Positions 2,195-58,072 of a DNA stretch of 64,000 bases are shown in pieces; within the stretch, counting starts at the first letter, position 1; the number at the start of each line of letters is the position of its first letter. The notes under the pieces were generated by a model, which saw only the letters and a program-made list of their open reading frames with translations, had not been told where the DNA came from and did no database searches. Source of the DNA: Somniosus microcephalus. Lineage: Eukaryota. The stretch spans positions 115,382,001 to 115,446,000 of the forward strand of contig CM126211.1 of assembly GCA_052327205.1 (NCBI GenBank), read 5' to 3'. Position numbers and translations under genes: made by a program.

Positions 2195-3615
2195 TTTTTA
2201 ATTCATTGTTGGGATATGGGTGTCGCTAGCATCCCTAGTTGCCCATCCCTAGTTGCCCATCCTTAGTTGCCCTTGAGAAGGTGGTAGTGAGCTGCCTTCT
2301 GAACTGCTGCAGTCCGTGTGGTGAAAGTATTCCTACAGTGCTGTTAGGGAGGGAGTTCCAGAAGTTGGAGGAACGGCATTATGGCCTAGAAATTCGGTGG
2401 CGCCCCGTGCCTGGGCGCTGGAAGTACCGCCCCGGAAGGAGCCACGAGCGCCAGCCGGAAATTCAGTTTCAGCACCCTAAACGGAAGCGGGGCGCTGCTC
2501 GAGGCGCCCCACATCCCTTTTGGGGCGCTGCAACTGAAAATCGCAGCGCAACGTGCCGCAGTGCTACATGCTGCGGCACGGCGCGCTGCGGTACTGCAGG
2601 CCTTCCTCCCCTTCTTAAAGGGGCGGGGCCTGCTGCAGCGCGATCAGAGATCGCGAGTGCCGGCAAAAGAGCCCGGCACCGAGGAGAAGTGTCGGGCTCT
2701 TGGGACACAGCCGGCACAACACGGGGGGGGGGGGTGCTCAGGAGGCCGGGGACGGCGACGCGAAGAGGTGCTGGCAGGCGGCCAGCAAAAAAAATGGCCG
2801 CCCCGCACCTCTCCTTTAATTAGCACCTCTACCGCCACAGGCAGTCCCCCCTGAACCGGTCGCAAATTGCGACCGGCGTTACAGCGGGGGGCGCTACCAA
2901 ATTTCGCGATCGGGGCGGTAGCGGGGCGCTGCGCACACCGATGACGTCATCGGTGGTGGCGCAGCGCTACAGGCTAACGCCGCCATTAGCGCCCTGCTAA
3001 ATTTCACAGGAGGCGTGGCCAGTGGCGCTAAACCCACTAAGTGCCCTCTTTGGGCGCTAACTGGTGGCGCAGCCCACCGAATTTCTAGGCCTGTATGTCC
3101 AAGATTGGATGGATATTTGACTTGAATGGGAATTTGGAGGCGATGGTGTTTCCATGTACCTGCTGCCCTTGTTTTTCTAAGCAGTGGCGGTCATGGATTT
3201 GGGTGGGACTAGCAAAGAAGCCTTGGTGCCTTGCTGCAGCATATCCTGTAGATAGTACACACTGCAGCCACGGTGCACCAGTGGTGGAGTTACTGGATGT
3301 TTTAGCTGTTGGGTGGGATGCCGATCAAAAAGATTGCTTTGTACTGCATGGTGCTGAGCTTTTTGAGTGTTGTTGGAGCTGCATCCATCCAGGCAAGCGG
3401 AGAGTATTCCATCGCACTCCTGATGTGTGTCTTGCAGGTGTCAGAGAGGCTTTGGGGAGTTAGAATGTGAGCCACTTACTGCAGAATACCTAGCCTCTAA
3501 CTTGCTATAGTAGCCACAGTATTTAGGTGGCTGGTCCAGTTGAGTTACTGGTCAATACTGACCCCCAGGATGTTGATAGTGGGGGATTCGGTGATGGTAA
3601 TGCCTTTGAATGTTA
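2195..3615 (-). mobile_element. CR1/L2-group LINE 3' fragment, split by a MITE
   Basis: Minus strand encodes decayed LINE ORF2 C-terminal motifs (WNSLP, VRSAMEYSPLAWM-like). Confidence 0.65.
2383..3091. mobile_element. Harbinger-type MITE (~700-bp family)
   Basis: TIRs GGCCTAGAAATTCGGTGG / CCACCGAATTTCTAGGCC; flanks TAT/TGT; interior homologous to 6371-7024, 32970-33665 and 35725-36431. Confidence 0.85.
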
Positions 3616-4739
3616 ATATATGCCAAGGTATCATTGGCGGGATTAGGGAATGACAAAATTAATTCGATTTCAGGAGAGCAGATTTTGAGTTAATAAGTGA
3701 AAAATTGGAAAGATAAATTTCAAAGTAAGCTGATATGGTACCTAAGAAAATATGTTTTTTTTTTCTGGAGATGTTGTTTCACTTTGAATGCTAAACCTAG
3801 ATTTTCTAATGACCATTATTTTAACACTGATAGCAACCCGCTGATTGGAAAAACTAAGCTTGTGTGTGTACTTGACGAGGTGAACATGCTCAGAGCTAAG
3901 AAATGCACCAATGTGAATTTTTCCATTCTCACACCAGCCATCCTTATTGTATCTCGATGAGACTGCCAGTTTGTATACACTGTATGCAGTTTCTTCCTAT
4001 GGGCTTGTACCTGATAAAACTAGGTTGAAGGAGCCTAAATTCATTTCATATAGGACCTTCATGACCAGTAAAGAGAACCTTTCCTCCCTTTGGGCTGCAC
4101 CAGATTCAAAGCAAGGTCTAAACAGTGAAAGGTTTAACTATGCGAAAGAGGATTCAACTGAGATATTTCACATTGAAGGCTGAGGATCATATTGAAATCT
4201 AGATGTAGTAAATCTAGGTTATAGTAAGCAAAATGGTGCAAAAATCTGTTCTAGGTCATTTAAAGAAAATAAGATTGGACAATATATAAAAGAAAAGGTA
4301 GGGATGCTAAAATGCCAATTAGGAATAAAAAAAAAAAATGGCAAAGCACATCTTAATAGACACTGATGTAGGTGTATTTATATGGAGAGTTCACTGTCTT
4401 AAAGTGAGTCTTATGCAGATTGGCGATTAGGACATTCTGACATTGTGGTCAGGCCACTGGTTTGGAGCCCAAACTGAGCTTTTCTCATCGGTGTTATTTT
4501 AATGCTCACATTAAAATAATGCTGATCAGAAAATGTAGGCTCAATGTCTTGGCTCTGAAGTCCCAAGCTTTGATGTTGAATGTTCTGCAACTGCTCCAGC
4601 AGCCTGGCTGAGGACCAACCACCGCACAACTGAAGTTCTGCCAAATCCTCCATCACGGTTGACTAAAATCTTTCTCTGAGATCTGCCAGCCCTGAACACA
4701 CAACTGCTCAGAGCACTGACCGTGTCAGGCATGACCACT

Positions 4740-16467: not shown

Positions 16468-18798
16468 ATACTTCACTTGTGATACCAGTAAACTCAACCA
16501 CACCTCCCCATTCACCAACCATCCCACGCTCCTTATCTTTCCTCTATCACTGACCATCATATTGTCCTCTTTCCGACAACACAAAAATAAAAACCACCAA
16601 ACTGTGCAAATTCCAATACAATCTTAGTAAATCAATCATTACGTAATGCATACAAAAATAAAACAATCACCCTTGTGCATTCCCTTAGTGCCTGTCTTCC
16701 GTGTGACTTTGCCTCTCCTAGTGCTCATACGAGGCGCTTCCCTAGTTGCTGCAGCATGGGTGGTAGAAGGCTGCTAACCTTCAATTGCAATGGCATTGGA
16801 GGGTGACCTCAAGCAGTTCTGGGCCTGGAAGGTTTGGCTTCAGACTGCACCATCTCGGCCTGGGTGGCAGCAGTCTGGACTGGCTGGCTGACAGGCAACA
16901 GCAAGGGCACTGGCAAAATGGTAGGGATGGGAACAGGAATGCTGTCATCCTGAGAGAGGACAGCAGGTTTGTGCTCCATGGAGCCACTGCCACTCTCCCG
17001 GGGCAGTGCCTCAGCAATCCTAGTGATCTGTTGGAGAACAGATTGATGGACTGCTGTGATGCCCTGGAAACCCCTTTGAACACTGGTATCCAGAGCCCTG
17101 ATAGTAGCAGTCTGACCTTCCACTGCAGTACTCAGAACTTTGGTGGAAACTGCTTGTGCTGCAATGGGAGCTGTGACATCGGCCATCAGACACTGCCTCA
17201 TATTGGGTTCCACAGGTGTGCTGATCGAGGTGACCACTCATTCCATGTTGGAAAGGATGGGCTCCAAGCTCTACACAAAGTAATGTGTCAAGTTGGTGCC
17301 GGACTCCTCCATGCTCCTTGACATTGAGCGCAGGCTTCCTGGCAGTCTTTCCAGTGCACCAAGCATTTAGATGTGTACATCCATCAGCCTTCTTCAGTAG
17401 CCTGGCCCATTGAAGTCCTCATCTGACTCCTCCGCAGCAGAACTAGTATGCAACCTCACCCTCTGGTGAGCTGGCACTTGCGCTATTCTTTCCCCCTGCC
17501 CTGGCTCCTGCATACTTGTGCCCAGTATCTCACCATGTCCAAATCCCTCCTCTATCCTAGCCTCTAAAATATGCAGTGTCAATCTCTGAGCTGCTGGCTA
17601 CGAGTGTAAGATAGAGTGACCGTGTTTCGTCATTGTCACTGTCTTCTTCATCTTCCTCCACTGACTGGGTAGGTTCCAGTTCTTGGCTACCTGAAATGAA
17701 AAATGGACAAGGGATAGGGTTGTGGTGAGGGGAGAGGGGAAAGTAAGAAGTGCGTGCTTACACCATCTGCAGCTTCTAAGTCAGAAGAGATTGTTGGATG
17801 AGAGAGAAATGTGATGAAAGAAGGAGGATTAGGTCTGCAGATAACCTCATCATCGATCGCTTCAGCCCAGCCAGTGGCCCTTCCCATGATAGCCAACACT
17901 GTCTCATCCATGGGGGTTAAAATATACAGACGTGCTTATCTTCCTCCAGTTCTTTCTGCTGCCTGCTGTTATGTGCCACCTTCTCCTGCAAGAAAGAGGG
18001 AAGTGCATCAGTGAGTGTCCTGCAATATCTTTGGCTGATGTGGCTTTCATGGTTGAATAGCTGCCAGTGCCTGTGAGCTGTGAGTTGTGGGTGCTTGCAA
18101 CAGTCCACGTGTATGAGGGTGAGGTAAAGCATATGAATTTTAGGATTGAATACTGATTGATAGAGATTGTTCGTAGGTGGGTGATAGGGGTGTAGAGAAT
18201 TGAGCAGTGGATGAGGCTAGTCGTGCAGTTGGTAGGTTATGCCATTTGAAGATTAACTCACTTAAATTGATAACTCGTGTCAGATTAGAGTCATAGGCCT
18301 AGAAATTCGTCTGGTTGCGCCAGCGATTAGCGCCTAAAGAGCCCCAGATTTGGGGCGTTACCCAATTTTTGGACGTGCGCAGTGATCCTAGCGCATCCTG
18401 CCAAATTGAGTAGCCTGTTAGCGCCGGCGCTAAGTCTTTGCGCCTGCGAGCGGGCGCAGCCAGATAATGACGTCATTTCATTGTGCAACGCCTTTTTGGC
18501 GCCCCATACCGGAAATTCAGTGGCGCCCCCCTCCGTTCTGCCTGGCGCTATTAGTGACAGTTGGATGGAACGTTACCAGGTCCTTCTCAGACTCGGGGGG
18601 CGCTCTTTAAAGGGGACAGCACCAGTATAAAAGTGGCAGCCATTTGGCCTGGCCATATTGCTCGCTGCTGGAGAGAGTTGCAGACCTTCAGTTACACAGA
18701 CTTGTTCTTATTGAGCCAGAGGAGCCTTGGGACCTTCAGCCCTGTCCAGAACAGTTGGATCCAGAAAGCTGACTGCGTCTTACTCGTCGGCCAGAATA

Positions 18799-19948
18799 AT
18801 GGGAGCTGCTTTGGAGGGGAACGTCATCCTGGCTGAACAACTGGCAAGGGCACAGAGACGGAGGGAGAGAGGGCCGGGATTGGCCAGAAGGAGGAGGGCC
18901 ACTGGACGTCGCCAAATCCGACCATACGCTGCCAGGGTTTTCAGGCAGCAGGTCTCCTACCTTACCATGTCGGAGGAGCAGTGTCTGCGAAGGCTCAGAT
19001 TTGGTAAGGATGTTGTCACTGAGCTGTGCCACCTGCTTGCTGAGGATCTGCAGCCGCGGATACGGTGCAGGACCTCTCTGTCGATGGCCATGAAAGTCAC
19101 TGTTGCACTCAACTTTTATGCCAGCGGATCGTTTCAGGCAGCAGCTGGGGACATATCAAATATCTCTCAATTTGCGGTGCATTGCTGCATCCAGCAAGTG
19201 ACAGCTACCCTCTACAAAAGGAGGCACGATTTAATCACCTTCCCTGTGACCCTGGAGAAGCAGGGGGAGCGTGCACAGGGCTTCGCGGCTATTGTGGACT
19301 TCCCCATGGTGCAGGGGGCCATTGATTGCACACACGTGGCTTTGCGGAATCCGGAGGAGTTCCGTAACCGAAAGGGGTTCCACTCCCTTAATGTGCAGCT
19401 GGTCTGTGATCACCGGTAGATGATCATGGCGGTGAACGCACAATTCCCTGGCAGCAGCCATGATGCATTCATCCTGCGGCAGACCTCAGTGGCTGACCTT
19501 TTTGAGGCCCCGGCTCACCCACGAGGCTGGCTTCTGGGTGACAAGGGCTATCCTCTCTGCCCATGGCTCATGACCCCGCTCCGTTTGCCCAGCACCCCGG
19601 CAGAAGAGCATTACAATAACAGCCATCAGGCCACCAGGAACATTGTGGAGCACACAATTGGTGTGCTGAAGCAGCGTTTCCGTTGTCTAGACCATTTGGA
19701 GGGCGCCCTACAGTACTCGCCGGAGCATGTGGCGCGCATCGTTGTTGTCTGCTGCATGCTCCACAACCTGGCCATTCGATGCACCCAGCCAATGCCAGCT
19801 GACCCTCAAGGTCCAGCAGAGCAGGCGGACGGAGGAGGAGGAGGAGGAGCATGCGGGCGAGGAGGATCAGGAGGAGGAGGAGGAAGATGGGAGGGCTCCA
19901 GAAACTGGAAGGGCCGTTCGTCAGAGGTTCATAAGGACTTGGTTCTAG
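18799..19948 (+). pseudogene. Harbinger DDE transposase (element D)
   Basis: Catalytic motifs GAIDCTHV, LGDKGY and RNIVEHTIG; in-frame TAG at 19417 and a frameshift near 19830. Confidence 0.92.
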
Positions 19949-20774
19949 GCCCCTCGGACGGAATGGTGTCTGTGAATCGAACAGCGCCCTCCGGTTCGCT
20001 GTAAGCCTATGAAGGCCTCAATGATTGTAAATAGTGTACAGCTCGATTGTAAATAAAAAGTTTTCTTTATTTTCAAACAAGTGCTTCCTTCCAGCATGAC
20101 AACATAATGGTAACAGAAATCACAACTAACAAACTAACAGATAACTGTCTGGCAACCCGGCGAAATAACCAAACAATAACAAACAAACACAGCAGGTGTG
20201 GACGGCCTTAAATCCGGAAAAAGAGACGTCTTAGCACCTCCCTCTACTGGTGACCCCTTGATGGAGACCGACTCCTCTTACGAGTTCGGCCCCTTCCCTC
20301 CCTGCAGCTCCTCCGTAATTGGACCCCAGTGGCTGCGTCAAGGCTGGGGGACGCCTGCTGAGTGTCTGGAAGCGCTGAAGCCCCTGAGGGACGGCCTGGA
20401 TGACCTCTGGGCTTGGAAGTCCCGCAAGCAGGCTGCTCCAACTGGGCATGTCTGCTAGCAGTCTGCCGTGCAGGTGGTGGCAGCTGCTCTGCTGACGTGC
20501 CAGCGGTGGCATCAGGACTGCTCACATGCAGAGAGAGGACACCTGCACCATGGTCAGCCGAAACACTAGCACTCTGACGGGGCCGCACGGGATCATACGC
20601 CACAATCGACTGCTCCACAGATTCATGGCCTGCTGTGGTGCTGCAAGAGCCTGGGGTGATCCTGCCTGATGCAGCTAGGGTGGCAGCAGAGAGTGTTCAC
20701 GTGGCCTCAATTTGCGTGTGGACGAGGCCAGCAAGTGACTGCGTGGCAGCAGTGAGGACCTGCGTGGCAGGTGC

Positions 20775-21203
20775 CAGTGCTTCGGATAAGCCATGGACAG
20801 TCCTTTCCACTGCTTCGGACAAGGCTGGAACACTCCTTTCCACTGCCTCGGACAAGCCCTGGACAGACCTTTCCACTGCCTCGGACAAGCCCTGGACAGA
20901 CCTTTCCATTGCTGGGCTGAAGCCCTGGACAGACCTTTCCACTGCCTCGGACAAGCCCTGGACAGACCTTTCCACTGCTTCAGACAAGGCCGGAACACTC
21001 CTTTCCACTGCCTTGGACAAGGCATGGACAGACCTTTCCACTGCCTCGGACAAGGCCTGGACAGACCTTTCCACTGCCTCGGACAAGCCCTGGACAGACC
21101 TTTCCACTGCATTGGACAAGCCCTGGACAGACCTTTCCATTGCTGGGCCGAAGCCCTGGACAGTGCTTTCCATTGCTGCCCCAAAGTCCAGCACACTCTT
21201 TGT
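20775..21203 (-). repeat. 33-bp coding minisatellite, 13 x 11-aa (ERSVQGLSEAV)
   Basis: Directly visible in DNA and in ORF 20697..21326. Confidence 0.95.
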
Positions 21204-21936
21204 CAGTGTGTCGATCGACTCAGGCATCCTCCCCACTGCAGCCATCAGCTCAGTGTGTCTGAGCCGGGCCTGGGCGCTCATCTCGGCAAGGCTACGCACC
21301 TCCTCTGCACTCTGTGCAGCAGTCATGGTGGCCTGCCTCGCCCTCCGGGAGACGGCCCCCGAGCATCCCTACCCCCCGCGCGTTGCTGCAGGCCGCTGGT
21401 TCCTGCAACTGGCTCCTCATCAGAGCCCCCGCCCCCCTCCCCTCAAGGGAACTACTATCCCCAGTCTCCAGATGCGGTGGCTCCCCTGAGGCTGGCACGG
21501 ATGGTCCGGCTTCCTCCTGGTCGTCGCCTCCGGAGGCACTGGCACTGGCAGCTTGAGGGGCCGGCTCCCGAGCTGGTGATGCAGCATCTGAAAGCAGGGA
21601 GGTTGAAGAGTGGCTTTAGCAAAAGGACAGTTTGGCAGCAAGGGACGCAACAGTGCGGCAATGCTATGACATGGCTCCACATTGAGAAAGCATGCTGGCG
21701 GGGGAAACAACTGGAAGGTGACAGCTGTAATAGTAGAGAACCTTACCATCACTGTGGACAATGGGGTCGGCAGCTGCAGTGGTGACAGGACCACTCAGGC
21801 GTCCTCCCACAATCTGGTGGACTCTCTCCTCGAGATCCGTCAGAGGCTCCAGTTGAGGACGGCCTCCTCCGGTGCGAAGCTGCTCCTTGCAGTTTCTCGC
21901 CAGCTTGGCCTGCAGGGCAAAGGACGGGAAGTGATG

Positions 21937-22105
21937 TTACATGATGCCCTGAATGATGATCTCATGCCCCCCATGGTGGAACAGCCCTTACATGATGCCC
22001 TGGGTTATCATCTCATGTCCCCCATGATGGAACAGCCCTTACATGATGCCCTGGGTTATCATCTCATGCCCCTCATGGTGGACCAGCCCTTACATGATGC
22101 CCTGA
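21937..22105. repeat. 51-bp minisatellite in Myb intron 1 of D
   Basis: About 3.3 copies of ttacatgatgccctg...catctcatgccccccatggtggaacagccc; homologous arrays at ~23802-23968 and 34866-34985. Confidence 0.9.
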
Positions 22106-23153
22106 GTCAAATGTGCATGTGTGTGACCAGAAAGGGCCATGGGTGCTTGCTGACAGATGGCCAGTGGGGCATAGCACACCCTGTAGCCATAAAGTCAGGT
22201 GCTAATGGAGGGATGCATAAGTTTACATTAACTCCACTCACCCTCACGACCCAAGTGAGGTCGTTGAATTTCTTCCTGCACTACACAGGGCTCCTGGTCG
22301 CCATGCTGCTGGAGTTGACTCTCTGAGAAACATCCCTCCAAGCTCGTCGGTAGTCCTTATGATTAGGCCTCCTGCCATTGTCGGGGTAGAGGACATCTCG
22401 CCGGCGCTCCACTGCGGCCACCAATTCCTCCAGAGACTCATTGGTGAAGTGCTCTGCTCTCTGCCTCACCCTCTCCATATGCTCCAAGTTTTTTGCGCCA
22501 GAGAAGGGCCTGCGCCGATTTGCAGGCCTACAAGGCGCAGAGTGTGGATGCTGGAGCTGCCTGACCCACCCCTTTAAGAGCTGGCCGGCGCCTGGAAGTC
22601 TCATGGTCATGGGTAATTGAGAGCACCTGCGCTGCGGCTGGACGCCCCGATATTGGGTTGCGCCGGCATGTTAGCGCCTTAGGTGCCCCGTGTAACGCCT
22701 GAACTCGCTCTTCAATCACCTTTGGGGCACTGCAACCCAATATCGCACGAGGTGTCGATAAGTTGCGTCTGGCTATAAAATTTGCGCTCCGCCAATTCTA
22801 ACGCCCCAAGCGGGACTATACCCAATTTCTAGGCCATAGAATCATAGGCCTAGAAATTCGGTTGGTAGCGCCAGCGATTAGCGCCTAAAGAGCCTGAGAA
22901 TTGGGGCGTTACCCAATTTTCGGGCGGGCGCAGTGAATATAGCGCCACCTCCCATATTGAGTATCCTTTTAGCGCCAGCACTAACTCTTTGCGCGCACCC
23001 GCGGGCGCAGGCAGATCATGACGTCATTTCAGTGTGCAACGCCTTTTTGGCGCCCCGGACCAGATATTCGGTGGCGCCCGCAACCTTTCCGCCTGGCGCT
23101 ATTAGTGACAGTTGGATGCAGCGTTCCCAGGCCCTTCTCGGACTCGGGGGGCG

Positions 23154-24343
23154 CTATTTAAAGGGGACAGCACTAGTATAAAAGCTGCAGCCATTTGGGC
23201 TGGCCATTCTGATCGTTGCCGGAGAGAGTTGCTGACCTTCTGTTGGTGTGGAGATGCCGGAGTTGGACTGTGTCTTTATGCATTTCTCCACTTCACCTGA
23301 CGAAGGAGCAGCGCTCCGAAAGCTTGTGATTTCAAATAAAGCTGTTGGACTATAACCTGACCTTCTGTTGGACAGTAATTTTCTCATTGAGCCTTCGGAG
23401 GCACAGGCACTGGCAGCTTGAGGGCCCGGCTCCCGAGCTGGTGATGCAGCATCTGAAAACAGGGAGGTGCAAGAGTGGCTTTAGCAAAAGGACAGCTTGG
23501 CAGCAAGGGATGCCAGATTGCGGCAAGGTTATGACATGGGTCCACAGTGAGAAAGCATGCTGGCGGGGGGAACAAGTGGAAGGAGACAGTTGCAAAAGGT
23601 GAGAACCTTACCATCGCTGTCGACAATGGGGTCGGCAGCTGCAGTGGTTACAGGACCACTCAGACGTCCTCCAAGAATCTGGTGGACTCTCTCCTCGAGA
23701 TCCGTGAGAGTGACCACTTGTGGAGGTCCTCCACTGGTGCGAAGCTGGTCTTTGCCAATCCTCGCCAGCTTGGACTGCAGGGGAAAGGAGGGGAAGTTAT
23801 GTTACATAATGCCCTGAGTGATCATCTCATGCCCCCCATGGTGGAAGAGCCCTTACATGATGCCCTGAGTGATCATCTCATGCCCCCCATGGTGGAACAG
23901 CCCTTACATGATGCCCTGAGTGATCATCTCATGCCCCCCATGGTGCAAAAGCCCTTACATGACACCTTGAGTCAAATGTGCATGTGTGTGCCCAGAAAGG
24001 GCCATGGGTGCTTGCTGGCAGATGGCCAATGGGGCACAGCCCACCCTGTAGCCATAAAGTCAGGTGCAAATGAAGGGATGCAGAAGTTTGCAGAAACAAC
24101 ACTCACCCTCACGACCCGAGTGAGGTCGTTGAATTTCTTTCTGCATTGGACAGGGCTCCTGGTCACCATGCTGCTGGAGTTGACCCTCTGGCATACATCC
24201 CTCCAAGCTCGTCGGTAGTCCTTATGATTCGGCCTCCTGCCATTGTCTGGGTAGAGAACATCTCGCCGGCGCTCCACTGCGGCCACCAATTGCTCCAGAG
24301 CCTCATTGGTGAAGCGCTCTGCTCTCTGTCTCACCTTCTCCAT
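23154..24343 (-). CDS. Predicted spliced, C-terminally truncated Myb/SANT protein (232 aa) of element E
   Basis: Exons 24343-24107 (237 nt), 23774-23612 (163 nt) and 23452-23154 (299 nt) join into an open frame with canonical GT/AG sites. Expression unknown. Confidence 0.6.
23247..23356 (+). mobile_element. 110-bp Penelope-type terminal-repeat fragment inserted in element E
   Basis: Flanked by a 15-bp direct repeat CTGACCTTCTGTTGG (23232-23246, 23357-23371); absent at the homologous site in D; contains a hammerhead motif and AATAAA. Confidence 0.8.
23293..23329 (+). ncRNA. Minimal type I hammerhead ribozyme motif
   Basis: TCAC-CTGACGA-A-GGAGC-AGC-GCTCC-GAAA-GCTT-GTGA: stem I TCAC/GTGA, intact CUGAnGA and GAAA core, stem II GGAGC/GCTCC, palindromic AAGCTT stem III. 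Confidence 0.8.
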
Positions 24344-25707
24344 CTGGTCCAAATTTTTAGCACCAGAGAAGGGCCTGCGCCGATTCTGAGGCCTGCAAGG
24401 CGCAGAGTGTGGATGCTGAAGCTGACTGACCCACCCCTTTAAGAGCTGGCCGGCGCCTGGAAGTCTCGTGGTCATCGGTAATTGAGAGCACCTGCGCTGC
24501 GCCCGTCCGCTCCGATATTGGGTTGCGCCGGAAGTTTAGCGCCTTAGGAGTCCCGTGTAACGCCTGAATTCGCGCCTCAATCACCTTTAGGGACGATGCA
24601 ACCCAATATCGCGCCAGGTGGCGATAAGTTGCGTCTGGCTATAAACTTTGCGCTGCGCCAATTCTAACGCCCCAAGCGAGGCTATACCCAATTTCTAGGC
24701 CCTAGAGTCTTGTTCCTATACTGCATCCACATTCTTGGAGCAACACTCCTGGCATTGACCTTTGCCGCTACTTTTTTCCGCTACCTCCTGACCATATGTC
24801 TGGAGGGCCTTCTGCCCCCCTGCGGATACAGAACGTCTCTCCTTCTTTTCACCTCTTCCACCAAGACCTGCAGTGTAGTATCTGAAAACCTTGGTCCTTG
24901 CTCTCTCACATGTTCAGCCATTGCTCAAGTATCACAGCACAGATTGACTTTTGAAAAAACTGCCACCATTTCTTGCAGCCACAATGCACCTCCCCTTTTA
25001 GAGGTGCCAGCTGCCTTTAGATAGCACTAACTACTTGCGATATCGGGCCTGTTGCTGATGCGTGCAGCCAATGAACTGCACAGGGAGCGCTGGCTACACG
25101 CAACAATCATTTAAAAGAGCAGAAAGCACCAAAAACACTGCCTGCAACGCACTGAACTGGGTTAATCACTTCCCCCATACTCTTTAAAGCATATGTATGC
25201 ATTCTGGACCTGCAATATTGACACCAAATTTAGGATACTCAGCCATAACTCACATCTTCATGGCTGCAGGCATGAAAGTATCATCACTATGATGTCATTA
25301 GTAAACACACCAGCTGATACCTGGATAGATCATTTTGCATTTGATATCCTAAATTCTCTGCAGGAATCGAGGCGGGCTGGAGGCAGCTGACAGCTTGGTT
25401 TTAAAGATGCAAGATAGAACTTAGTTTGAATGTTGTTATATTTTAAAATATACAAAAGGACTGTTGTAGTTCAGGCTTATTCCCAACACTTTTTCATAGT
25501 TCTCATGTTCCTGGCTAGCCAGCAGTTCCTATAAGCAGACCAACTCCCTTTTGAACCACAAATTGCATCTTTATCCTCCCAACAAAATACAAAAACAGTG
25601 CAGAACAGCAAAACCAACAGAGCTATGATGAGTCCGCAGGAGGTTAATATAGCCGTAGAAGATTCATTTTTCTAACAGTTCCTTTTCAGCAAACTCTTGG
25701 AAATACA

Positions 25708-32969: not shown

Positions 32970-33665
32970 GGGGGAAAAATTGGGTGAGTAGCGCCACCTG
33001 TTAGCGCCTAAAGAGGCAGTCAGTGGCTGTAGCGCCACTGGCTGCGCCTCCCGCGATATTCAGCAGGGGCGGTAATGGTGGCGCTAGCCTTTAGCGCTGC
33101 GCCGCCACCGATGACGTCATCGGTGTGCGCAGCGCCCCATTCGCGATATTTGGTAGCGAACGGCGCCGTTCGCTACCCGCACCCGGTTCACGGGGCCTTG
33201 CTATGCCGGCAGAGGCGCAAGTTAAGGTGGAGGTGCGGGGCGGCCGCTTTTTTGGCGGCCGCCTGCCAGCACCTCTGTCCCCGGCCTCCTGGTCCCCCCC
33301 CGCCCCCCGCGGCATTTCCGGCTGTTTCCCGAGAGCCCGGCACTTCTCCTTGGTGCCGGGCTCTTTTGCCAGCACTCGCGATCGGGGCTCGTGCTTTTGC
33401 AGGCCCCTCCCCCTTAACAGTGGGAGGAAGGCCTGCAGTACCGCAGCGTGCCGTGCCGCAGCGTGTGGCGCTGCGGCACGTAGCGCTGCGAAATTCACTT
33501 TCAGCGCCCTAAGAGGGACGCGGAGCGCCTCGAGCCGCGCCCCGTCTCCCTCTAGGGGCACTTCAACTGAATTTGCGGCGATTGCTAATGCGGCGATCAC
33601 GGCACAAATTCCAGCGCCCAGGCGAACTTTGCGCCGCTTGGGCGCCTCAGGCCAATTTCTAGGCC
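32970..33665 (-). mobile_element. Harbinger MITE (M1) in the CR1 tail
   Basis: Ends GGGGGAAAAATTGG / CCAATTTCTAGGCC; TSD ATA. Confidence 0.92.
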
Positions 33666-33676
33666 ATAGAGTCATA

Positions 33677-35713
33677 GGCCTAGAAATTGGGTTGGTAGCG
33701 CCGGAGCTGAGCGCCTAAAGAGACCTAGAATTGGGGCGAAGCCCGATGTTGGGGCGGACGCTATGAAGATAGCGCCGACTCAGAAATTGACTATACATTT
33801 AGCGCCTGCGCTAAGTGTTTGCGCGCGCCCGCGCTAAGTGTTTGCGCGCGCCCGCGAGCGCAAGCAGCTCATGACGTCATTTCAGTGTGCAACGCCTTTT
33901 AGGAGCGCCTGAGCGCATATTGGGTGGCGCCCGGAGCCTTAGCACCCAGCGCTATTAGTGACAGTTTGAGGGAGGGCTAACAGGCCCTTCTCAGAGTAGG
34001 GGGGCGCTATTTAAAGGGGACAGCTTCAGTGCAGAATCTTCTGCCACTTGGCCTGCTCATTGCGCTCGTTGCCAGTGAGAGTTGGCGAGCTAATGTGGAG
34101 CGGAGTTCTGGGATTTGAGCTTTACAGTACTTGCTACCTTCAACCCTGTCCGAAGCACTTGCACCACTACACCTAAAAGCCTTTTGACCAACTGGCATCG
34201 GAATGGGAGCTTGTTTGGAGGGCGACGGACCTCATCTGCACTCTGTGCAGCAGTCATGACGACCTGCCTTGCCCTGCGGGGAGACGGTGGCCGAACTTGC
34301 CTATCCCCCCTGCGTTGCTCCATGCCGCTTGGTCCGGCAACTGGTTCATCCTCAGAGCCAACCCCCCTCCCCTCCAGGGGACTACTATCCCTCGTCTGCA
34401 GATGTCTCCGCTCCCCGGATTCTGCAATGGCTGGTCCGGATTCCTCCTGGTCCTCGCCTCCGGTGGCACTGGCACTGGCAGCTTCAGCGCGTTGAGCCCA
34501 AGTTGGTGCTGCTTCATCTGAAAGTGGGAGGTGGAAGAGTGGCTTTAGCAAAAGGACAGGTTTGCTGAAAGGCATGCCAGATTGCGGCAAGGCTCTGACA
34601 TGGCTGCACACTGAGGATGCATGCTGGCGGGGGGACCAAGTGGAAGGCAACAGGTGGAAAAGGTGAGAGTCTTACCCTCGCTGTCGGTAATGGGGTCGGC
34701 AGATGCAGTGGTCACTGGACCAGACAGACGTCCTCCAAGTATCTGGTGCACTCTCTCCTCCAGATCCGTGAGAGTGACCACTTGTGCAGGTCCACCACCG
34801 GTTCGACGCTGCTCCTTTCTAATCTGTGCCATCTTGGACTGCAGGGGAAAGAAGGGGAGGTTCTGTTACATGAGGCCTTGAGACCTCATCGCATGCCCCC
34901 CATGGTGCAAGAGCCCTTATATGAGGCCTTGAGACCTCATCGCATGCCCCCATGGTGCAAGAGCCCTTACATGAGGCCTTGAGACATCTGTCCATGTGTG
35001 TGGCCAGAAAGGGCCATGGGTGCATACTGACAGATGGCCATTGGCGCATCATTGCAGCAGGGTGCCCGAAGTCAGCTGCAGATGGAAGGAATCACAAGTT
35101 TGGTAAACCATCACTCACCCTAACGATCCGTGTGAGGTCGTTGAATTTCTTCCTGCACTGAACAGGGGTCCTGGTCGCCATGCTGCTGGAATTCACCCTC
35201 ACAGCAACCTCCCTCCAAGATCGTCGATAAGCCTTCTGATTTGGCCTCTTGCCATTATCCGGATACAGGACCTCTCGACGGTGTTCAACTGCAGCCACCA
35301 AGTGGTCCAGAGCCTCAGTGCTGAAGCGCTCTGCTCTCTGCCTAACCTTCTCCATAATGCACAAGTTTCTAACGCCAGACAAGGGCGAGCGCCGAATCTG
35401 AGGCCTACAGGGCGTTGGGTGTTGAAGCTCAGTCTGACTGACCCGCCCCTTTAAGAGCCGGCCGGCGCCTGTAGGTCTCGTGCTTTCCCGTAATTGAGTT
35501 CACCTGCGCTGCGCCCGTCCGCGTCGATATTGAGTAGCGCCTGACCTTTTGCACCTTAAGAGCACTGTGCAATGGCTGATTTAGCGCCTCAATCCCCTTT
35601 GGGGGCGATGCAACCCAATATCGCGCCAGGCGGCGATAAGTTTCGTCTGGCTATAAACTTTGCGCATCACCAGTTCTAACGCCTCAAGCGGGGCTATACC
35701 CAATTTCTAGGCC
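33677..35713 (+). mobile_element. Internally deleted Harbinger (element B), transposase reduced to its first codons
   Basis: TIRs GGCCTAGAAATTGGG / CCCAATTTCTAGGCC; TSD ATA; arms homologous to D and E; junction at ~34225. Confidence 0.92.
34090..35355 (-). CDS. Predicted spliced, C-terminally truncated Myb/SANT protein (275 aa) of element B
   Basis: Exons 35355-35119 (237 nt), 34838-34676 (163 nt) and 34517-34090 (428 nt) form an open frame with GT/AG sites. Expression unknown. Confidence 0.6.
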
Positions 35714-35724
35714 ATAGAGTCATA

Positions 35725-36431
35725 GGCCTAGAAATTGGCCTGAGGCACCCAAGCGGCGCAAAGGTCGCCTGGGCGCTGGAATTTGCGCCGCGATCACCGC
35801 ATTAGCGATCGCCGCAAATTCAGTTGAAATGCCCCTAGAGGGAGACGGGGCGCGGCTCGAGGTGCTCCGCGTCCCTCTTAGGGCGCTGAAAGTGAATTTC
35901 GCAGCGCTATGTGCCGCAGCGCCACACGCTGCGGCACGGCACGCTGCGGTACTGCAGGCCTTCCTCCCACTGTTAAGGGGGAGGGGCCTGCAACAGCGCG
36001 AGCCCCGCTCGCGAGTGCCGGCAGAAGAGCCCGGCACCGAGGAGAAGTGCCGGGCTCTCGGGAAACAGCCGGCATTGCCGCGGGGGGGGGACCAGGAGGC
36101 CGGGATGGAGGTGCTGGCAGGCGGCCGCCAAAAAAGCGGCCGCCCCGCACCTCCACCTTAACTTGCGCCTCTGCCGGCGCAGCAAGGCCCCGTGAACTGG
36201 GCGCAGGTAGCGAACGGCGCTACAGCGGTGTTCGCTACCAAATATCGCGATCGGGGCTGAATGGGGCGCTGCGCACACTGATGACATCATCGGTGGCGGC
36301 ACAGCGCTAAAGGCTAACGCCACCATTAACGCCCCTGCTTAATATCGCGGGAGGCGCAGCCAGTGGCGCTACAGCCACTGACTGCCTCTTTAGGCGCTAA
36401 CAGGTGGCGCTACTCACCCAATTTTTCCCCC
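35725..36431 (+). mobile_element. Harbinger MITE (M2), inverted non-identical paralog of M1
   Basis: Ends GGCCTAGAAATTGG / CCAATTTTTCCCCC; TSD ATA. Confidence 0.92.
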
Positions 36432-39400
36432 ATAGAGTTATACAGCACAGAAAGAGGCCCTTCGGCCCATCGCGTCTGCGCCGGCCATCAAGCCTTGTCT
36501 AATCTAATCCCATTTTCCAGCATTTGGTCCGTAGCCTTGTATGGTATGGCGTTTCAAGTGCTCATCCAAATGATTCTTGAATGTTGTGAGGGTTCCTGCC
36601 TCTACCACCCTTTCAGGCAGTGAGTTCCAGATTCCAACCACCCTCTGGGTGAAAAAGTTCTTCCTCAAATCCCCTCTAAACCCCCTGCCCCTTACCTTGA
36701 AACTATGCCCCCTGGTTATTGACCCCTCTACTAAGGGGAAACGTTCCTTTCTATCTACCCTATCTATGCCTCTCATAATTTTGTACACCTCAATCAGGTC
36801 CCCCCTCAGCCTTCTCTGCTCCAAGGAAAACAACCCCAGCCTGTCCAGTCTTTCTTCATAGCGGAAGTGCTCCAGCCCAGGTAACATCCTGGTGAATCTC
36901 CTCTGCACCCTCTCCAAAGCAATCACATCCTTCCTATAGTGTGGCGACCAGAACGGCACACAGTACTCCAGCTGTGGCCTAACCAGCGTTTTGTACAGCT
37001 CCATCATAACCTCCCTGCTCTTATATTCTATGCCTCGGCTAATGAAGGCAAGTATCCCATATGCCTTTTTAACCACCTTATCCACCTGTTCTGCTGCCTT
37101 CGGGGATCTATGTACATGCACACCAAGGACCCTCTGATCCTCTGTCTTTCCTAGGATCTTACCATTCATTGTGTATTCCCTTGCCTTGTTAGTCCCTCCA
37201 AAATGCATCACCTCACACTTTTCAGGGTTAAATTCCATTTGCCACTGTTCTGCCCATCTGACCAACCCATCTATATCGTCCTGCAGACTGAGGCTACCCT
37301 CCTCGCTATTTACCACTCCACCATTTTTTGTGTCATCTGCGAACTTACTGATCATACCTTTTACATTCACATCCAAGTCATTAATGTAGACCACAAACAG
37401 CAAGGGACCCAGCACCGATCCCTGCGGTACCCCACTGGACACAGGCTTCCAGTCACAAAAACAACCTTCGACCATCAACCTCTGCTTTCTGCCACTAAGC
37501 CAGTTTTGGATCCAATGTGCCAAGGCACCCTGGATCCCATGGCCTCTTACCTTCTTGACCAGTCTCCTATGCGGGACTTTATCGAAAGCCTTACTGAAAT
37601 CCATGTATACCACATCCACTGCACTACCCTCATCCACACACCTAGTCACCCCCTCGAAAAATTCAATCAAATTGGTCAGACATGGTCTTCCCTTGACAAA
37701 GCCATGCTGATTACCCCTGATTAATCCTTGCCTCTCGAAGTGGAGACTAATTCTGTCCCTCAGAATTTTTTCCAATAATTTCCCTACCACTGATGTTAGG
37801 CTCACTGGCCTGTAATTCCCTGGTTTATCCCTACTACCCTTCTTGAATAATGGTACTACGTTAGCTGTTCTCCAGTCCTCTGGCACCTCCCCTGTGGCCA
37901 GAGAGGTTCTGAAAATTTGTGTCAGAGCCCCTGCAATCTCCTCCTTTGCCTCACACAGCCGCCTGTGATACATCTCGTCCGGGCCTGGGGATTTATCCAC
38001 TTTTAAGCCTGCTAAAACTGCTAGTACCTCCTCCCTCTCGATGCTAATATGTTCAAGTATATCACAGTCCCCCTGCCCAATTTCTTTGTCTACATCGTCC
38101 TTCTCCATAGTGAACACAGATGCAAAAAATTCATTTAAAACCCCACCTACATCTTCTGGCTCCACACACAGATTGCCACTTTGGTCCCTAATGGGCCCTA
38201 CTCTTTCCCTAGTTATCCTCTTACCCTTAATATGCTTATAATAAAACACCTTAGGATTTTCCTTTATTTTGCTCACCAGTGTTATTTCATGGCCCCTCCT
38301 CGCACTCCTAATTTCTTTTTTAAGTATCCCCCTGCACTTTTTATACTCCTCTAGGGCTTCCTCTGTCTTTAGTCCTTTGTATCTGCCAAAAGCCCCCCTT
38401 TTTTCCCTAACCCATCCTCGTATATCCCTTGACATCCAAGGTTCCCTGGGCTTGTTGGTCCCACCCTTGACCTTTACGGGAACATGTTGCCATGGTACTC
38501 TCTCAATTTCCTTTCTGAAAGACTCCCATTGCTCCGATGTGGATTTTCCTACAAGTAGCTGATCCCAGTCCACTTTGGCCAGATCCTGCCTTATCATATT
38601 AAAGTCGGCCTTCCCCCAATTTAGAACCTTTATTTCCGGTCCATCTCTGTCCTTTCCCATGACTACCTTAAATCTCACCGAATTATGGTCACTGTCACCA
38701 AAGTGCTCACCTACTAACACTTCTACCACTTGCCCGGCCACATTCCCTAGAATTAGGTCCAGTACCGCCCCCTCTCTTGTAGGACTTTCTACATGCTGGC
38801 TCAAAAAGCTCTCCTGGATGCACTTTAAGAATTCTGCACCCTCTAAGCCTTTCACACTCTGACTAGCCCAGTTAATATTGGGGAAGTTGAAATCCCCCAC
38901 TATTATTACCCTATTATTTGCACATTTCTCTGAGATTTGCCTACATATCTGTTCCTCTATCTCCCCCTGACTGTTTGGGGGCCTATAGTACACTCCCAGC
39001 AAAGTGCTTGCCCCCTTTTTGTTTTTAAGTTCTACCCATATGGCCTCATTAGAGGAACCTGTTAATATATCATCCCTCCTTACAGCAGTAATTGACTCCT
39101 TAATTAATATTGCGACACCCCCTCCTCTTTTACCCCCCCCTCTGTCTCGCCTGAAGATTCTATACCCCGGAATATTGAGCTGCCAGTCTTGCCCCTCCCT
39201 CAACCATGTCTCCGTGATAGCAACAATATCATACTCCCATGTGTTCATCAACACCTTCAGTTCATCCACCTTATTCGCAAGACTCCTTGCATTAAAATAA
39301 ATGCCATCCAGCCTTGCCCTACTCCCTTGTGCCGTTACATATTTGCTCTGCCTTCCAAGCTGACTTGTTTTTTCCTCTATATTTGGTTGTACATCACCCC

Positions 39401-39452
39401 CTATTATAGCTCCACTCTGCATCCCATCCCCCTGCCATGTTAGTTGAAACTG
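36432..39452 (-). mobile_element. 5'-truncated CR1 LINE; its (ATAGAGTC)n tail extends, interrupted, to ~32948
   Basis: Full ORF2, short 3' UTR and 8-bp tail repeat; truncated just upstream of ORF2. Confidence 0.95.
36504..39422 (-). CDS. CR1 ORF2 (APE endonuclease-reverse transcriptase), open 972 aa
   Basis: Endonuclease motifs NARSL, ITETW, YRPP, GDFN and SDH; RT motifs GVPQGSVLGP and FADD; WNSLP C-terminus. Confidence 0.93.
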   Translation of the reverse strand: MQSGAIIGGDVQPNIEEKTSQLGRQSKYVTAQGSRARLDGIYFNARSLANKVDELKVLMNTWEYDIVAITETWLREGQDWQLNIPGYRIFRRDRGGGKRGGGVAILIKESITAVRRDDILTGSSNEAIWVELKNKKGASTLLGVYYRPPNSQGEIEEQICRQISEKCANNRVIIVGDFNFPNINWASQSVKGLEGAEFLKCIQESFLSQHVESPTREGAVLDLILGNVAGQVVEVLVGEHFGDSDHNSVRFKVVMGKDRDGPEIKVLNWGKADFNMIRQDLAKVDWDQLLVGKSTSEQWESFRKEIERVPWQHVPVKVKGGTNKPREPWMSRDIRGWVREKRGAFGRYKGLKTEEALEEYKKCRGILKKEIRSARRGHEITLVSKIKENPKVFYYKHIKGKRITRERVGPIRDQSGNLCVEPEDVGGVLNEFFASVFTMEKDDVDKEIGQGDCDILEHISIEREEVLAVLAGLKVDKSPGPDEMYHRRLCEAKEEIAGALTQIFRTSLATGEVPEDWRTANVVPLFKKGSRDKPGNYRPVSLTSVVGKLLEKILRDRISLHFERQGLIRGNQHGFVKGRPCLTNLIEFFEGVTRCVDEGSAVDVVYMDFSKAFDKVPHRRLVKKVRGHGIQGALAHWIQNWLSGRKQRLMVEGCFCDWKPVSSGVPQGSVLGPLLFVVYINDLDVNVKGMISKFADDTKNGGVVNSEEGSLSLQDDIDGLVRWAEQWQMEFNPEKCEVMHFGGTNKAREYTMNGKILGKTEDQRVLGVHVHRSPKAAEQVDKVVKKAYGILAFISRGIEYKSREVMMELYKTLVRPQLEYCVPFWSPHYRKDVIALERVQRRFTRMLPGLEHFRYEERLDRLGLFSLEQRRLRGDLIEVYKIMRGIDRVDRKERFPLVEGSITRGHSFKVRGRGFRGDLRKNFFTQRVVGIWNSLPERVVEAGTLTTFKNHLDEHLKRHTIQGYGPNAGKWD

Positions 39453-41348
39453 AATTCCCTGTTAAAGCTGAATTCCTTTCCGCACCCAGGAAAATGGGAA
39501 AAGTGCTTCAGCACTAACACAAAAGGCTCAGCAAGTCAGGAAAGGGGCACCCAGGGTCTTGCACACAGCACTCCAGCTTTGTGCAGGGGGTCAACACTGC
39601 AAGAGAGGTCCTCTACCCACAGGGGCCAGCAGGCCCTCCAGAAAGAACGATGTGGGACCAAATCACCGAGGCTGTCACTGCCAGCAGTGTCAGTACTGAA
39701 CTCAGCGCTAAGGTCAAAGTTCGCAGAGCGTGACTTTAAGGCGGCATGGCACACTGACTGACGTCAGTCTCTGCCTATTTGCATCTCCAGGGTCAGCGCT
39801 GCTATTGGCAACGCTAAGGCCCTCACCAAAATGGCGGCCATCGAGTCCCGCGCCAGAGAAGGGCTTTAGAATGTCGGCCGCCATTTATCGCCAGGTTAGC
39901 AGCGCAAACAGGTGGCGCTAAAGTTGGGAATTTCTAGGCCTATATAGGATATCATGGATTGAGTGGTATGGCTTACATTTTTAATTTCTATAAGTGGGTT
40001 GCCATAATAGCTTACAAATGACAGCTATAGGTGAACATTGATCAGCTCCTCAAATAGAAATAAGCATCATATGCTGTACCACTGCACGTGTTGTTATTCC
40101 TTTTCTTTCTACATATATGTGTAATTGGGTGTTCTTTAGTCTGTTGGAAATTACTGAAAAAACATTATTTGTTTGTCAGTGAATTTGTGCAACCTCTGAG
40201 AAAAGAAAGGTGTATTACTGTGAAGTACCCAGAAAAAAAAGCATACAGGGTGGAGGGACTAATTATGGAATGAGACATGAACAATAGAGTAACAGTGGAG
40301 GAATTGTCCAATGGAAGTACAGCTTCTAATGTCAAGGGCATAGATGAGAAGAGAAAAAAGTAGTGTGAAAAGCATTATAAATAACTGATGTTAGATTGGA
40401 GAAATTGCCTCAAAGAATGAAGCTTGTTTACAAACTTTATTTTGATTTTTTTATGGTGCTAGATTAAGGCAATGGAGCCAAAGTAAGAAGAAAAATCATT
40501 TGGTTTTTTTCTTGGTGGATCAGGACATGTTTGAAGGGTAAAGGTCTTTTATATTTTGTACTTTTCATACATGTATTTGTAGAAGATTTTTTTGGTCCCT
40601 CGATATTCTATTCAAATTGGAAAGATAGACACAGCAAAAGCCAAGTACCATCAGTGACAATTGCATTTTCCTGACAAGGTGATTGAACAGTTGGGCCTAG
40701 AAATTCAGTTCTTAGCGCCAGCCGCTAGCGCCTTAGGAGGAGGAGAAGTGGGGCGCTAAGTGGCTAGCGCCCGGGCGCGGCGCGATCTGCGCCTCTCGCG
40801 AACTTCACTCAAGAGTTAGCAGCGGCACAAAACCGCAGCGCCCGCTCAGCTGCGCGCGCAGATCCTGACGTCATTTCATGGTGCAACGCCCTTGGTGCGC
40901 CCCGAACCGGAACTTCAGTGGCGCCGCCCTTCTGTGCGCCTGGCACCCCCAGCGACTGGTAGAGGGGAACGGTTCCCAGTCGCTACGGGGTGCGGGGGAC
41001 GCTATTTAAAGGGGACTCCTCTTGCATTATAAGTGGCAGCCGTTTTGTGCCAATCCTGTGTGAGAGATGGATACTTGGAGAGAGACAAAGGGAGAGAGAG
41101 CGCTTTCTGCTTTGACTCAGCACTCGCACAGGCACTTCTGGCTTCAGGCCAGAGCTTTGCACTTGGATTTAACTTTTAGTGCCATAGCCTTGAGTCACCA
41201 CATGTAATGGGGGCTGCAATGGGTGGAAACGTTGGCTTACTGCATTGCATTCAAAGGGCTCAGAGACGCCGTGAGAGAGTGCCAGTCATGGCCAGACGGA
41301 GAAGGGCCAATAGGTGTCGGCACAGGAGACCTTACCCACCCAGGGTAT

Positions 41349-41578
41349 TGTGGTAAACCACTGTATTGTATATTGCCACCTCTGGGTGGCGCTGTGTATG
41401 GAGGCATGCCTCAGCTGACTCCACCCACCACTGTGTGGGTTTCGTTCAGACTTGTTCAGTCACTCACGAAGAAGCATGGTCTCTTCTTAGCTAATAAAAG
41501 CCTTATTCATCTCTTCTTTCGACTCGTCATCTCTTCTTCGACTCATCACCTTTTATGAAGTAATTGATAAGCGTATCA
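41349..41578 (+). repeat. Gypsy-1 5' LTR
   Basis: Identical by eye to 45473-45702; contains AATAAA. Confidence 0.95.
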
Positions 41579-41599
41579 ATTTTATTAGCTAAAAGTTAA

Positions 41600-44500: not shown

Positions 44501-45430
44501 GACAGAGCAAGCCTGATCAAGGCCACCCGCCCCTTCGAACGCCTGAGCGTCGATTTTAAAGGGCCCCTCCCCTCCGCTGACCGCAATGTGTACTTCCTCA
44601 ACATAGTTGATGAGTACTCCCGTTTCCCCTTTGCCATCCCTTGCCCAGACATGACCAGTACCACGGTCATCAAGTGTCTGAATGACATCTTCGCTCTGTT
44701 CGGGTTCCCCAGCTATATACATAGCGACAGGGGCTCATCGTTCATGAGCGACGAACTTCGGCAGTACCTGCTAACAAGAGGTATCGCCACGAGCAGGACC
44801 ACCAGTTACAACCCCCGGGGGAACGGCCAGGTGGAAAGGGAGAACGCGACGGTTTGGAAGGCAGTCCTCTTAGCACTAAAATCTAAGGGCCTTCCGACCT
44901 CCCGCTGGCAGGAGGTCCTCCCTGCAGCGCTCCACTCCATTCGGTCACTGCTTTGTACTGCCACTAATGCGACCCCTCATGAGAAAATGTTCGTTTTCCC
45001 CCGGAAGTCTACATCGGGAACCTCGCTACCGGCATGGTTGACTTCTCCTGGGCCCGTCCTACTGCGGAGGCACGTGAGGACGCATAAAACGGACCCCCTG
45101 GTCGAGCGGGTGCACCTCCTACACGCCAACCCCCAGTATGCCTGGGTGACATACCCAGACGGGCGGGAGGACACGGTCTCCATACGAGATCTCACACCCT
45201 CGGGTACCCCTGAATTACCACCGTTATCCCCCTTACCACCGTTATCCCCCTTACCACTGTTATCCCCCACCACCCCTCCCAACCCAACCCCTGCAGACGG
45301 CATGCCAAAGCCCCAGGAATCTTCGCCAACCACCCAGACACCAGACCCGACGTCGGATGCTGCAACACCACCGCCGCCACCACGACGATCAGGACGTCAG
45401 ACAAGGCCTCCTGATAGACTTAACTTGTAG
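41600..45430 (+). CDS. Intact Gag-Pol polyprotein (1276 aa)
   Basis: Two CCHC knuckles, protease IDSGS, RT (IDLKSAYHQ, PFG, YLDN), RNase H ESDAS, integrase HHCC and D,D,E; domain order PR-RT-RH-IN. Confidence 0.96.
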   Translation: MATPEEQQQQRIQQTLLRALRPPRLDLDPQEVGASAKFEHWLSCFESFLAISQVTEEDHKLKILTAQVSHQVYMLIRDSNTYVAALELLKGQYTRPVNTIYARHLLGSRRQQPGESVGAFARALLALCRDCDCKAVTAVEHAQGLACDAFVRGLQSDHTRQRLLESKEPDLKTAIALALSLEEAHRNLEAYPRNGAETWQSKPWDTGPPPPAPTAAATQPRQQPPVRTASMPSNQAQKCYFCGQLKHPRAHCPAKTATCSGCGKKGHYANACKGKPASSAACGPWEQPSYPPFCVPPAAWHPPPSYPTHSTAISSPEPTTVSADDYSDSLSHILASVTLDQALPHHLSSSMMDIAVNGRATSCLIDSGSTESFVHPDTVRSHSLTILPTHHRISMASKSQSMDISGYCVVTLSVGGTEYKKFKLLVLPRLCAAVLLGLDFQCHLKSVTLAYGGPLPPLTVCNQQLLNRPLQTTCSLSTLKVPPPPLFANLTRDCKPIATKSRRYSAGDRAFISSEVERLLKEGIIEGSTSPWRAQVVVVKTTAKRRMVIDYSQTINRYTQLDAYPLPRISDMVNQIAQYKVFSTIDLKSAYHQLPIRHEDRQYTAFEANGRLYHFLRVPFGVTNGVSVFQREMDRMVDQNALRATFPYLDNVTICGHDQQDHDVNLANFLCTAQRLNLTYNKEKCMFHTKRLAILGCVVENGVIGPDPDRMRPLMELPLPHCQKALKRCLGFFSYYAQWVPLYADKARPLIKATSFPLTPEACAAFTLIKNDIAKAAMHAVDESIPFQVESDASDFALAATLNQAGRPVAFFSRTLQGPETRHSSVEKEAQAIVEAMRHWRHYLAGKRFTLLTDQHSVAFMFNNKQRGKIKNDKILRWRIELSTYNYDILYRPGKLNEPPDALSRGTCANAQSDRLQSLHNDLCHPGVTRFFHFIKSRNLPYSIEEVRTMTKSCQICAECKPHFYRPDRASLIKATRPFERLSVDFKGPLPSADRNVYFLNIVDEYSRFPFAIPCPDMTSTTVIKCLNDIFALFGFPSYIHSDRGSSFMSDELRQYLLTRGIATSRTTSYNPRGNGQVERENATVWKAVLLALKSKGLPTSRWQEVLPAALHSIRSLLCTATNATPHEKMFVFPRKSTSGTSLPAWLTSPGPVLLRRHVRTHKTDPLVERVHLLHANPQYAWVTYPDGREDTVSIRDLTPSGTPELPPLSPLPPLSPLPLLSPTTPPNPTPADGMPKPQESSPTTQTPDPTSDAATPPPPPRRSGRQTRPPDRLNL

Positions 45431-45472
45431 TACCCTTCACCCCGCCGGACTTCACATTAAACAAGGGGTGAA

Positions 45473-45702
45473 TGTGGTAAACCACTGTATTGTATATTGC
45501 CACCTCTGGGTGGCGCTGTGTATGGAGGCATGCCTCAGCTGACTCCACCCACCACTGTGTGGGTTTCGTTCAGACTTGTTCAGTCACTCACGAAGAAGCA
45601 TGGTCTCTTCTTAGCTAATAAAAGCCTTATTCATCTCTTCTTTCGACTCGTCATCTCTTCTTCGACTCATCACCTTTTATGAAGTAATTGATAAGCGTAT
45701 CA
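45473..45702 (+). repeat. Gypsy-1 3' LTR
   Basis: Follows the PPT and precedes the TSD GGTAT. Confidence 0.95.
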
Positions 45703-58042: not shown

Positions 58043-58072
58043 TACAGTAAACACAAAATTGCACCCAAGTGA

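Follow-up and report, generated by a model that had tools for sequence, protein, structure and literature searches.

The PIF/Harbinger superfamily of DNA transposons is defined by terminal inverted repeats (TIRs), usually 25-50 bp long, and 3-bp target-site duplications (TSDs) (PMC9179366). A preference for a palindromic target with the consensus AAACACCWGGTCTTT has been described for the zebrafish element Harbinger3_DR (PMC3016246), and double insertion at a preferred site yields tandem dimers with target DNA at the junction (McGurk and Barbash, 10.1101/158386). For the CR1 long interspersed nuclear elements (LINEs) of birds, severe 5' truncation and a 3' octamer microsatellite, ATTCTRTG, have been described (PMC8665684, PMC4316615). 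Here, a 64,000-bp stretch of genomic DNA (positions 115,382,001 to 115,446,000 of contig CM126211.1, hereafter the window) was analyzed, in which two Harbinger-type elements, D and E, lie one behind the other in a remnant of a CR1-type octamer tail, inside the Myb exon of a host element, A. Based on all the evidence, it was concluded, with a probability of about 80%, that D and E inserted stepwise into a CR1 tail stub in A through the preference of their clade for a loosely palindromic target.

Element D (18296..22835, forward strand) was 4,540 bp long and was bounded by GGCCTAGAAATT TIRs and an ATA/ATA TSD; its transposase region was 94-96% identical to that of its kin. The left junction at 18296, with the flank tagagtcATA, read attagagtcATA/GGCCTAGAAATT. 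Element E (22847..24701, forward strand, 1,855 bp) was a transposase-less relative of D in the same orientation, 86% identical to D positions 1-398 and 90% identical to D positions 3231-4540, with the TSD ATA/CTA. The two were separated by an 11-bp spacer, ATA gaatc ATA (22836..22846, forward strand), consisting of the right TSD of D, one octamer step and the left TSD of E, so that the junction at 22835/22847 read AATTTCTAGGCC/ATAgaatcATA/GGCCTAGAAATT. The right junction of E at 24701 read AATTTCTAGGCC/CTAgagtc. This exact reading reproduced the order of D, spacer, E and flank given in a preliminary description of the window.

The elements were bounded by a perfect 12-bp TIR core. In a TSD sample of 60 stretches chosen by position, 38 elements had perfect 3-bp TSDs of many kinds and five more had mismatched ones. 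A DDE_Tnp_4 domain was recognized in the C-terminal half of the D protein (PF13359, E 2e-28), and a Myb/SANT domain was found in the second open reading frame (ORF) of E and of G, a member of another train in the window (PF13873, E 1.6e-10 and 9.1e-10, respectively). On these sequence features D and E are classified as Harbinger transposons, although the perfect TIR core was shorter than the usual 25-50 bp (PMC9179366). A shifted TIR/TSD boundary, with TAG or CAT as the TSD, was rejected because it would make the TIRs asymmetric.

The tract that received D and E was preserved as two remnants, tagagtc followed by the left TSD of D, ATA (18286..18295, forward strand), and CTA gagt (24702..24708, forward strand), the latter fused directly to A sequence. 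The 5' part of Myb exon 1 of A (24709..24950, reverse strand), recognized by translation and by alignment to A copies, was broken at the RKKFNDL motif. When D, E and one TSD of each were removed, 22 bp, or ~2.75 octamer units, remained. These foreign bases replaced 7 bp of A, namely the codons for F and N plus the initial base of the D codon in RKKFNDL, or up to 10 bp when ambiguous edge bases were included, and the earlier estimate of about three units replacing roughly 10 bp was therefore fair. The absence of a CR1 body beside the tract was likewise confirmed, the nearest CR1 ORF lying at 36504-39461. Another A copy (L045:1878-3000) carried a CR1, with its tail and a 1.1-kb body, ~45 bp from the D+E site.

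The alignment of the A family that had been suggested for defining the empty site was carried out on copies retrieved by a left-flank search of the 6.45-Gb genome assembly. Among the 29 other A copies from the best 40 of 4,148 candidates, the empty site gtcagat-Ygttaaa-cttc or a close variant was present in the 28 that spanned the site, and the remaining copy (L038) was deleted there; the octamer tract was found in none of the 29. Since unrelated left flanks were found in 23 of the 27 D kin whose left end could be read, the tract was not part of the D/E termini either. The possibility that it belonged to the A consensus or to the D/E ends was thus excluded by both sets of copies, and the octamer tract, foreign to A as well as to D and E, was the target, as had been claimed. 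The score of the site was ~5 for native A, ~120 for the rebuilt D site and ~700 for the rebuilt E site; therefore, it was the tract that created the target.

The octamer followed the 3' untranslated region of a LINE with a 985-aa ORF containing endonuclease and reverse transcriptase domains (Exo_endo_phos, RVT_1), and all 100 free tracts listed ran into the 3' end of this same LINE. The main tail unit was ACTCTATG, with ATTCTATG variants. The type of the octamer tail suggested assignment to CR1, to which we take this LINE to belong. An 8-bp tail after the 3' untranslated region of an endonuclease-reverse transcriptase LINE is common to this element and the bird CR1, whereas the unit differed from ATTCTRTG, and the passages on the bird elements in PMC8665684 and PMC4316615 are silent on DNA transposons using the tail as a target.

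The strength of the tail as a landing site was estimated genome-wide. The exact junction TIR-ATAGARTCATA-TIR occurred 106 times and a reversed control pattern 0 times, hence the adjacency was not due to chance; TIR-to-TIR junctions 0-30 bp apart numbered 571. At least 106,145 exact TIR ends were counted with a flank-constrained pattern, which gives a lower bound, and ~132,000 were estimated. Occupied tail sites, that is, TIR ends followed by ATAGAGT, numbered 3,156, and 39,873 free AGAGTCATAGAGT tail sites were counted under the same constraint. The resulting occupancy of 7.3% was about 6,300-8,900 times that of a genome-average site. By eye, some related TIR was seen at 12 of the 100 body-proximal sites listed.

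The CR1-tail repeat was therefore a very strong landing hot spot, yet most copies (~90%) were located elsewhere. A tail location was recorded for 4 of the 27 closest kin of D; kin in tails lay in both orientations, one of them (L066) with an open 402-aa transposase. Tail-like flanks were found at 8 of 97 unique ends sampled by position from the first 10.7 Mb of C1. Evenly spaced DNA totaling 800 kb held 32 ends, of which eight were tail-like, two of them doubtfully so. R2, Dada and SART/TRAS are strictly target-specific elements. Accumulation in a multicopy target is shared with them and with R1, described as such an element in 10.1101/158386; here, however, ~90% of the copies lay outside the repeat and the 3-bp TSDs were of many different kinds, so that a strict specificity for the CR1 tail was rejected in favor of a hot spot. 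Several multicopy hot spots shared one loose motif, and the tail was the largest among them. Other multicopy repeats were also struck repeatedly at the same site by this Harbinger clade (L098, L078 and L083; L099 and L118; L109 and L122).

The motif was derived from insertions outside the tail. The 129 non-tail half-sites gave A-R-A-S-W-Y before the TSD (then NNN), with frequencies of 0.60 for A at -6, 0.83 for A at -4, 0.64 for A at -2, and 0.59 for C and 0.32 for T at -1. The central triplet of these ends was of 38 different, mostly AT-rich kinds. The tail repeat, AGAGTC-ATA-GAGTY, fitted the motif on both sides, and a position-weight model placed the tail site among the best-scoring 0.01-0.05% of sites in the genome. 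A palindromic flank preference of ~6 bp on each side, of the Harbinger3_DR type, was thus found both in the 129 half-sites and in genome counts. As in Harbinger3_DR (PMC3016246), a two-gene Harbinger places its 3-bp TSD within a palindromic preference of ~15 bp, and the half-sites, A-A/R-A-C/S-A/W-C, are nearly identical. Whereas Harbinger3_DR has CWG as its central triplet, the triplet here was loose and AT-rich; the motif was also more degenerate, and a multicopy LINE tail happened to offer it every 8 bp.

Half-sites were also counted genome-wide at those TSDs whose middle base was C or G, so that ATA and TAT did not enter the count. GASTY followed such TSDs at 2,461 of 31,648 ends; the background, measured in evenly spaced DNA totaling 800 kb, was 0.30%. 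This enrichment was 26-fold per half-site, 684-fold for both sides and ~3,400-fold with the TSD factor, and most of the hot spot therefore needed no dedicated targeting of CR1. It is likely that the tail is hot because its repeat happens to match the loose palindromic target of the transposase. The preliminary description had assigned the preference to the transposase. The preference was indeed common to transposase-coding families and to MITEs (miniature inverted-repeat transposable elements), a pattern consistent with a trait of the transposition machinery; we infer that the motif is read by a transposase/Myb complex.

The following history is proposed for the locus. An extremely 5'-truncated CR1 retrotransposition event likely placed a 22-bp tail stub in A first. 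D and E would then have been inserted successively into neighboring units of the stub, each with its own 3-bp target duplication, by a machinery that would prefer approximately A-R-A-S-W-Y-NNN-R-W-S-T-Y-T. Because the tail repeat fits this motif on both sides every 8 bp, near-optimal sites follow one another in a short series along each tail. The next unit survives each insertion intact, which gives rise to trains with 11-bp spacers. Train neighbors were mostly of unrelated families and lay in both orientations. Of the two histories considered in the preliminary description, a tail-only CR1 insertion hit twice fitted best, as no twin of D+E was found among the best 40 matches to the junction and other body-less tracts occurred, namely L058 (free) and L296 (occupied).

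Several observations weighed against this history or its explanation by the motif. The right TSD of E was CTA instead of ATA, which was unremarkable given the five mismatched elements beside 38 perfect ones. Body-less tracts were rare (1 of 14 tracts examined; the 100 free sites listed showed no evident case), so that a body-less tract hit twice would be an uncommon history. The position-weight model predicted only a 250-1,100-fold preference for the tail site, 6-30 times short of that observed. The ~3,400-fold estimate rested on 18 of 129 TSDs and was still ~2-fold below the observed value; moreover, the half-site count was inflated by a second hot spot, AGA-GAGTT, which made up 19 of the 100 matches listed for GASTY after TSDs other than ATA and TAT, and the agreement was therefore only approximate. 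Finally, insertion next to a resident element was ~7-fold favored, an additional effect for which sequence preference alone was insufficient.

This neighbor effect was measured from the state of the next unit. Beside an occupied unit, 190 next units were occupied and 458 free (a slight undercount), i.e., 29% were occupied, whereas beside a free unit 555 (an upper bound) were occupied and 13,334 free, i.e., 4%, which corresponded to an odds ratio of 10. Outside the tails, a comparable excess was seen: dimers separated by a TSD only numbered 177 against ~24 expected, and non-tail spacers, seen by eye in ~10 of the 50 junctions listed, would amount to ~110 genome-wide against 17 expected. The age of the CR1 copies was rejected as a cause of the clustering: free, singly occupied and train tail bodies were equally near to their closest kin in small samples (T subtype, 23 versus 18 loci, p 0.36; A subtype, 5 versus 17 loci, p 0.94; loci with fewer than five comparable kin were dropped).

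The neighbor effect may stem from regional accessibility, from local hopping or from recruitment by ends already in place. The evidence for local hopping of the same element was mixed. Neighbors were of the same family in 6 of 30 tail junctions against 25 of 870 cross-locus pairs, an excess in tail trains, whereas no excess was seen in the TSD-only dimers (2 of 15 against 22 of 210). D and E themselves were only 86-90% alike, and hence the pair did not arise by a hop of a single copy. It is conceivable, though rather doubtful, that resident Harbinger ends recruit further insertions, including those of other families, within a few bases, so that CR1 tails would nucleate self-extending mixed trains; such recruitment may operate, for example, via Myb protein or transposase bound at the TIR. 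The occupancy of 29% against 4%, the 177 dimers against ~24 and the finding that CR1 age did not differ are compatible with it.

Some trains had further peculiarities. At L093 (G000:C9:196146252-196147704 plus flanks), four near-identical 698-bp MITEs lay head to tail in one CR1 tail with a period of 709 bp, which looks like an expansion after a first dimer. Spacers of 14 bp, such as ATAGAGTCATATAT, were found at L158, L159 and L171-L179 and point to insertions that were offset by 3 bp next to an earlier TSD; a single junction of this kind recurred six times on C31 within ~2 Mb.

Other histories of the D+E locus were considered. The tract may at first have been attached to a normal CR1 body, lost in a later deletion, perhaps when E transposed. 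That nearly all tracts have a body and that the right TSD of E is altered would fit this, but this would require a deletion endpoint precisely on the border between CR1 and A and a loss of only 7 bp from A, and TSD mismatches also occurred in five other elements beside 38 perfect ones; we regard such a deletion as unlikely. Slightly weaker is the case for a clade that evolved to recognize CR1 3' ends as a safe haven, a rather improbable explanation of the hot spot. The ~7% exact-TIR occupancy, the 12 of 100 body-proximal sites with any related TIR and the residual, at least 2-fold above the motif prediction, would be expected from it, yet tail-like sites made up only 4/27, 8/97 and 8/32 of the samples described above, non-tail sites followed the same motif, and the D+E tract showed that a body is not needed for targeting.

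The second history in the preliminary description, a pre-formed D+E tandem moved together with its flanking octamer bits, was not supported. The search for further D-E junctions that it had called for was run, and no twin of D+E was found among the best 40 of 3,841 candidates; the best non-self match was 91% identical and had other spacers, and within this set the D+E pair was seen at no second locus, as would be required of a composite transposon. Although body-less tracts are rare and junctions of D/E families do recur, the six loci inspected in full (L298-L303) were different pairs, L298 and L299 carrying D-like and E-like elements in the opposite order relative to the CR1 body. Cut-and-paste transposition does not carry flanks beyond the TIRs, and we consider such a move very improbable. 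Still less credible was an amplification of tail Harbingers by CR1 retrotransposition, with the D+E copy truncated just before the body. It could draw on thousands of element-tail-body junctions (1,280 exact) and on the same pair of families at L018 and L019, but orientation should then be fixed and identities should match. Of 51 close element pairs at 40 body-adjacent loci, 25 had the same and 26 the opposite orientation (the pairs were not independent), and identities were uncoupled, with 98.1% identical elements beside 88.9% identical CR1 copies and 99.2% identical CR1 copies beside inverted elements. This hitch-hiking was therefore largely refuted, and stepwise insertion into a tail stub was retained.

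The transposase gene of D (18799..20004, forward strand) was delimited from its ORFs, the DDE_Tnp_4 match and comparison with kin. Its reading frame was interrupted by a TAG at 19417-19419 and, compared with kin, lacked four codons; hence D is of the autonomous type, as described earlier, but is itself dead. An open transposase ORF of at least 386 aa with DDE-type motifs was present in 9 of the 29 nearest D kin retrieved. Exon 1 of the D Myb/SANT gene (22243..22478, reverse strand), recognized by translation and homologous to the E exon, had one in-frame stop and an approximate 3' edge; the E exon (24106..24343, reverse strand, Myb_DNA-bind_5) also had an approximate 3' edge. A 33-bp tandem repeat of 12 units (20774..21176, detected by TRF), lying in an ORF on the reverse strand (20697-21368), is likely a later exon of the Myb gene of D. 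It encoded an 11-residue helical repeat with weak apolipoprotein-like Pfam matches. A 51-bp repeat of three units was located in the intron of both D and E.

The comparison train, F+G+H (32970..36431), consisted of F (32970-33665), G (33677-35713) and H (35725-36431) in the tail of a CR1 with a body, whose ORF (36504-39461) encoded 985 aa with RVT_1 and Exo_endo_phos domains and remained open; F and H, the outer members, were inverted copies, 91% identical. All five train members in the window, D to H, sat at the ATA of the repeat, the right copy of E being CTA, as first noted. Outside the repeat, elements with the same TIRs were found at 2383-3091 (TSD TAT/TGT) and 40694-49253 (TTG). The latter held an LTR (long terminal repeat) retrotransposon with identical 230-bp LTRs (41349-41578 and 45473-45702) and a 1,276-aa open ORF, and a second LTR retrotransposon, with LTRs 99.3% identical, was located at 53663-58046.

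Palindromic target preference and tandems by repeated insertion are already known, and so is the mechanism itself. As in the tandems of 10.1101/158386, insertion was repeated and target DNA remained at the junction, as in the 177 TSD-only dimers. The trains differed in that the next repeat unit was used, leaving an 11-bp spacer, that the reusable target came from another mobile element, and that mostly different families were joined in either orientation. Harbinger insertion in CR1 tails, its scale and the neighbor effect were not found in the literature searched, with Repbase-type reports and most subscription journals beyond reach.

The locus thus belongs to a quantified case in which one mobile element manufactures landing sites for another: a DNA transposon family of ~65,000 elements has roughly 5-8% of its members in ~40,000 short LINE tails. 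Tail insertions would probably cut the CR1 body off from its tail, in part or completely, and could disable CR1 copies. The trains record the order of insertions and provide starting points for tandem arrays. From the natural insertions, a target motif for Harbingers was also defined that resembles the one of Harbinger3_DR. Harbingers were given as absent from the elephant shark, with other cartilaginous fish still to be checked, in the relevant passage of PMC9179366; if the genome analyzed here is that of a cartilaginous fish, its ~65,000 exact-TIR elements bear on this question.

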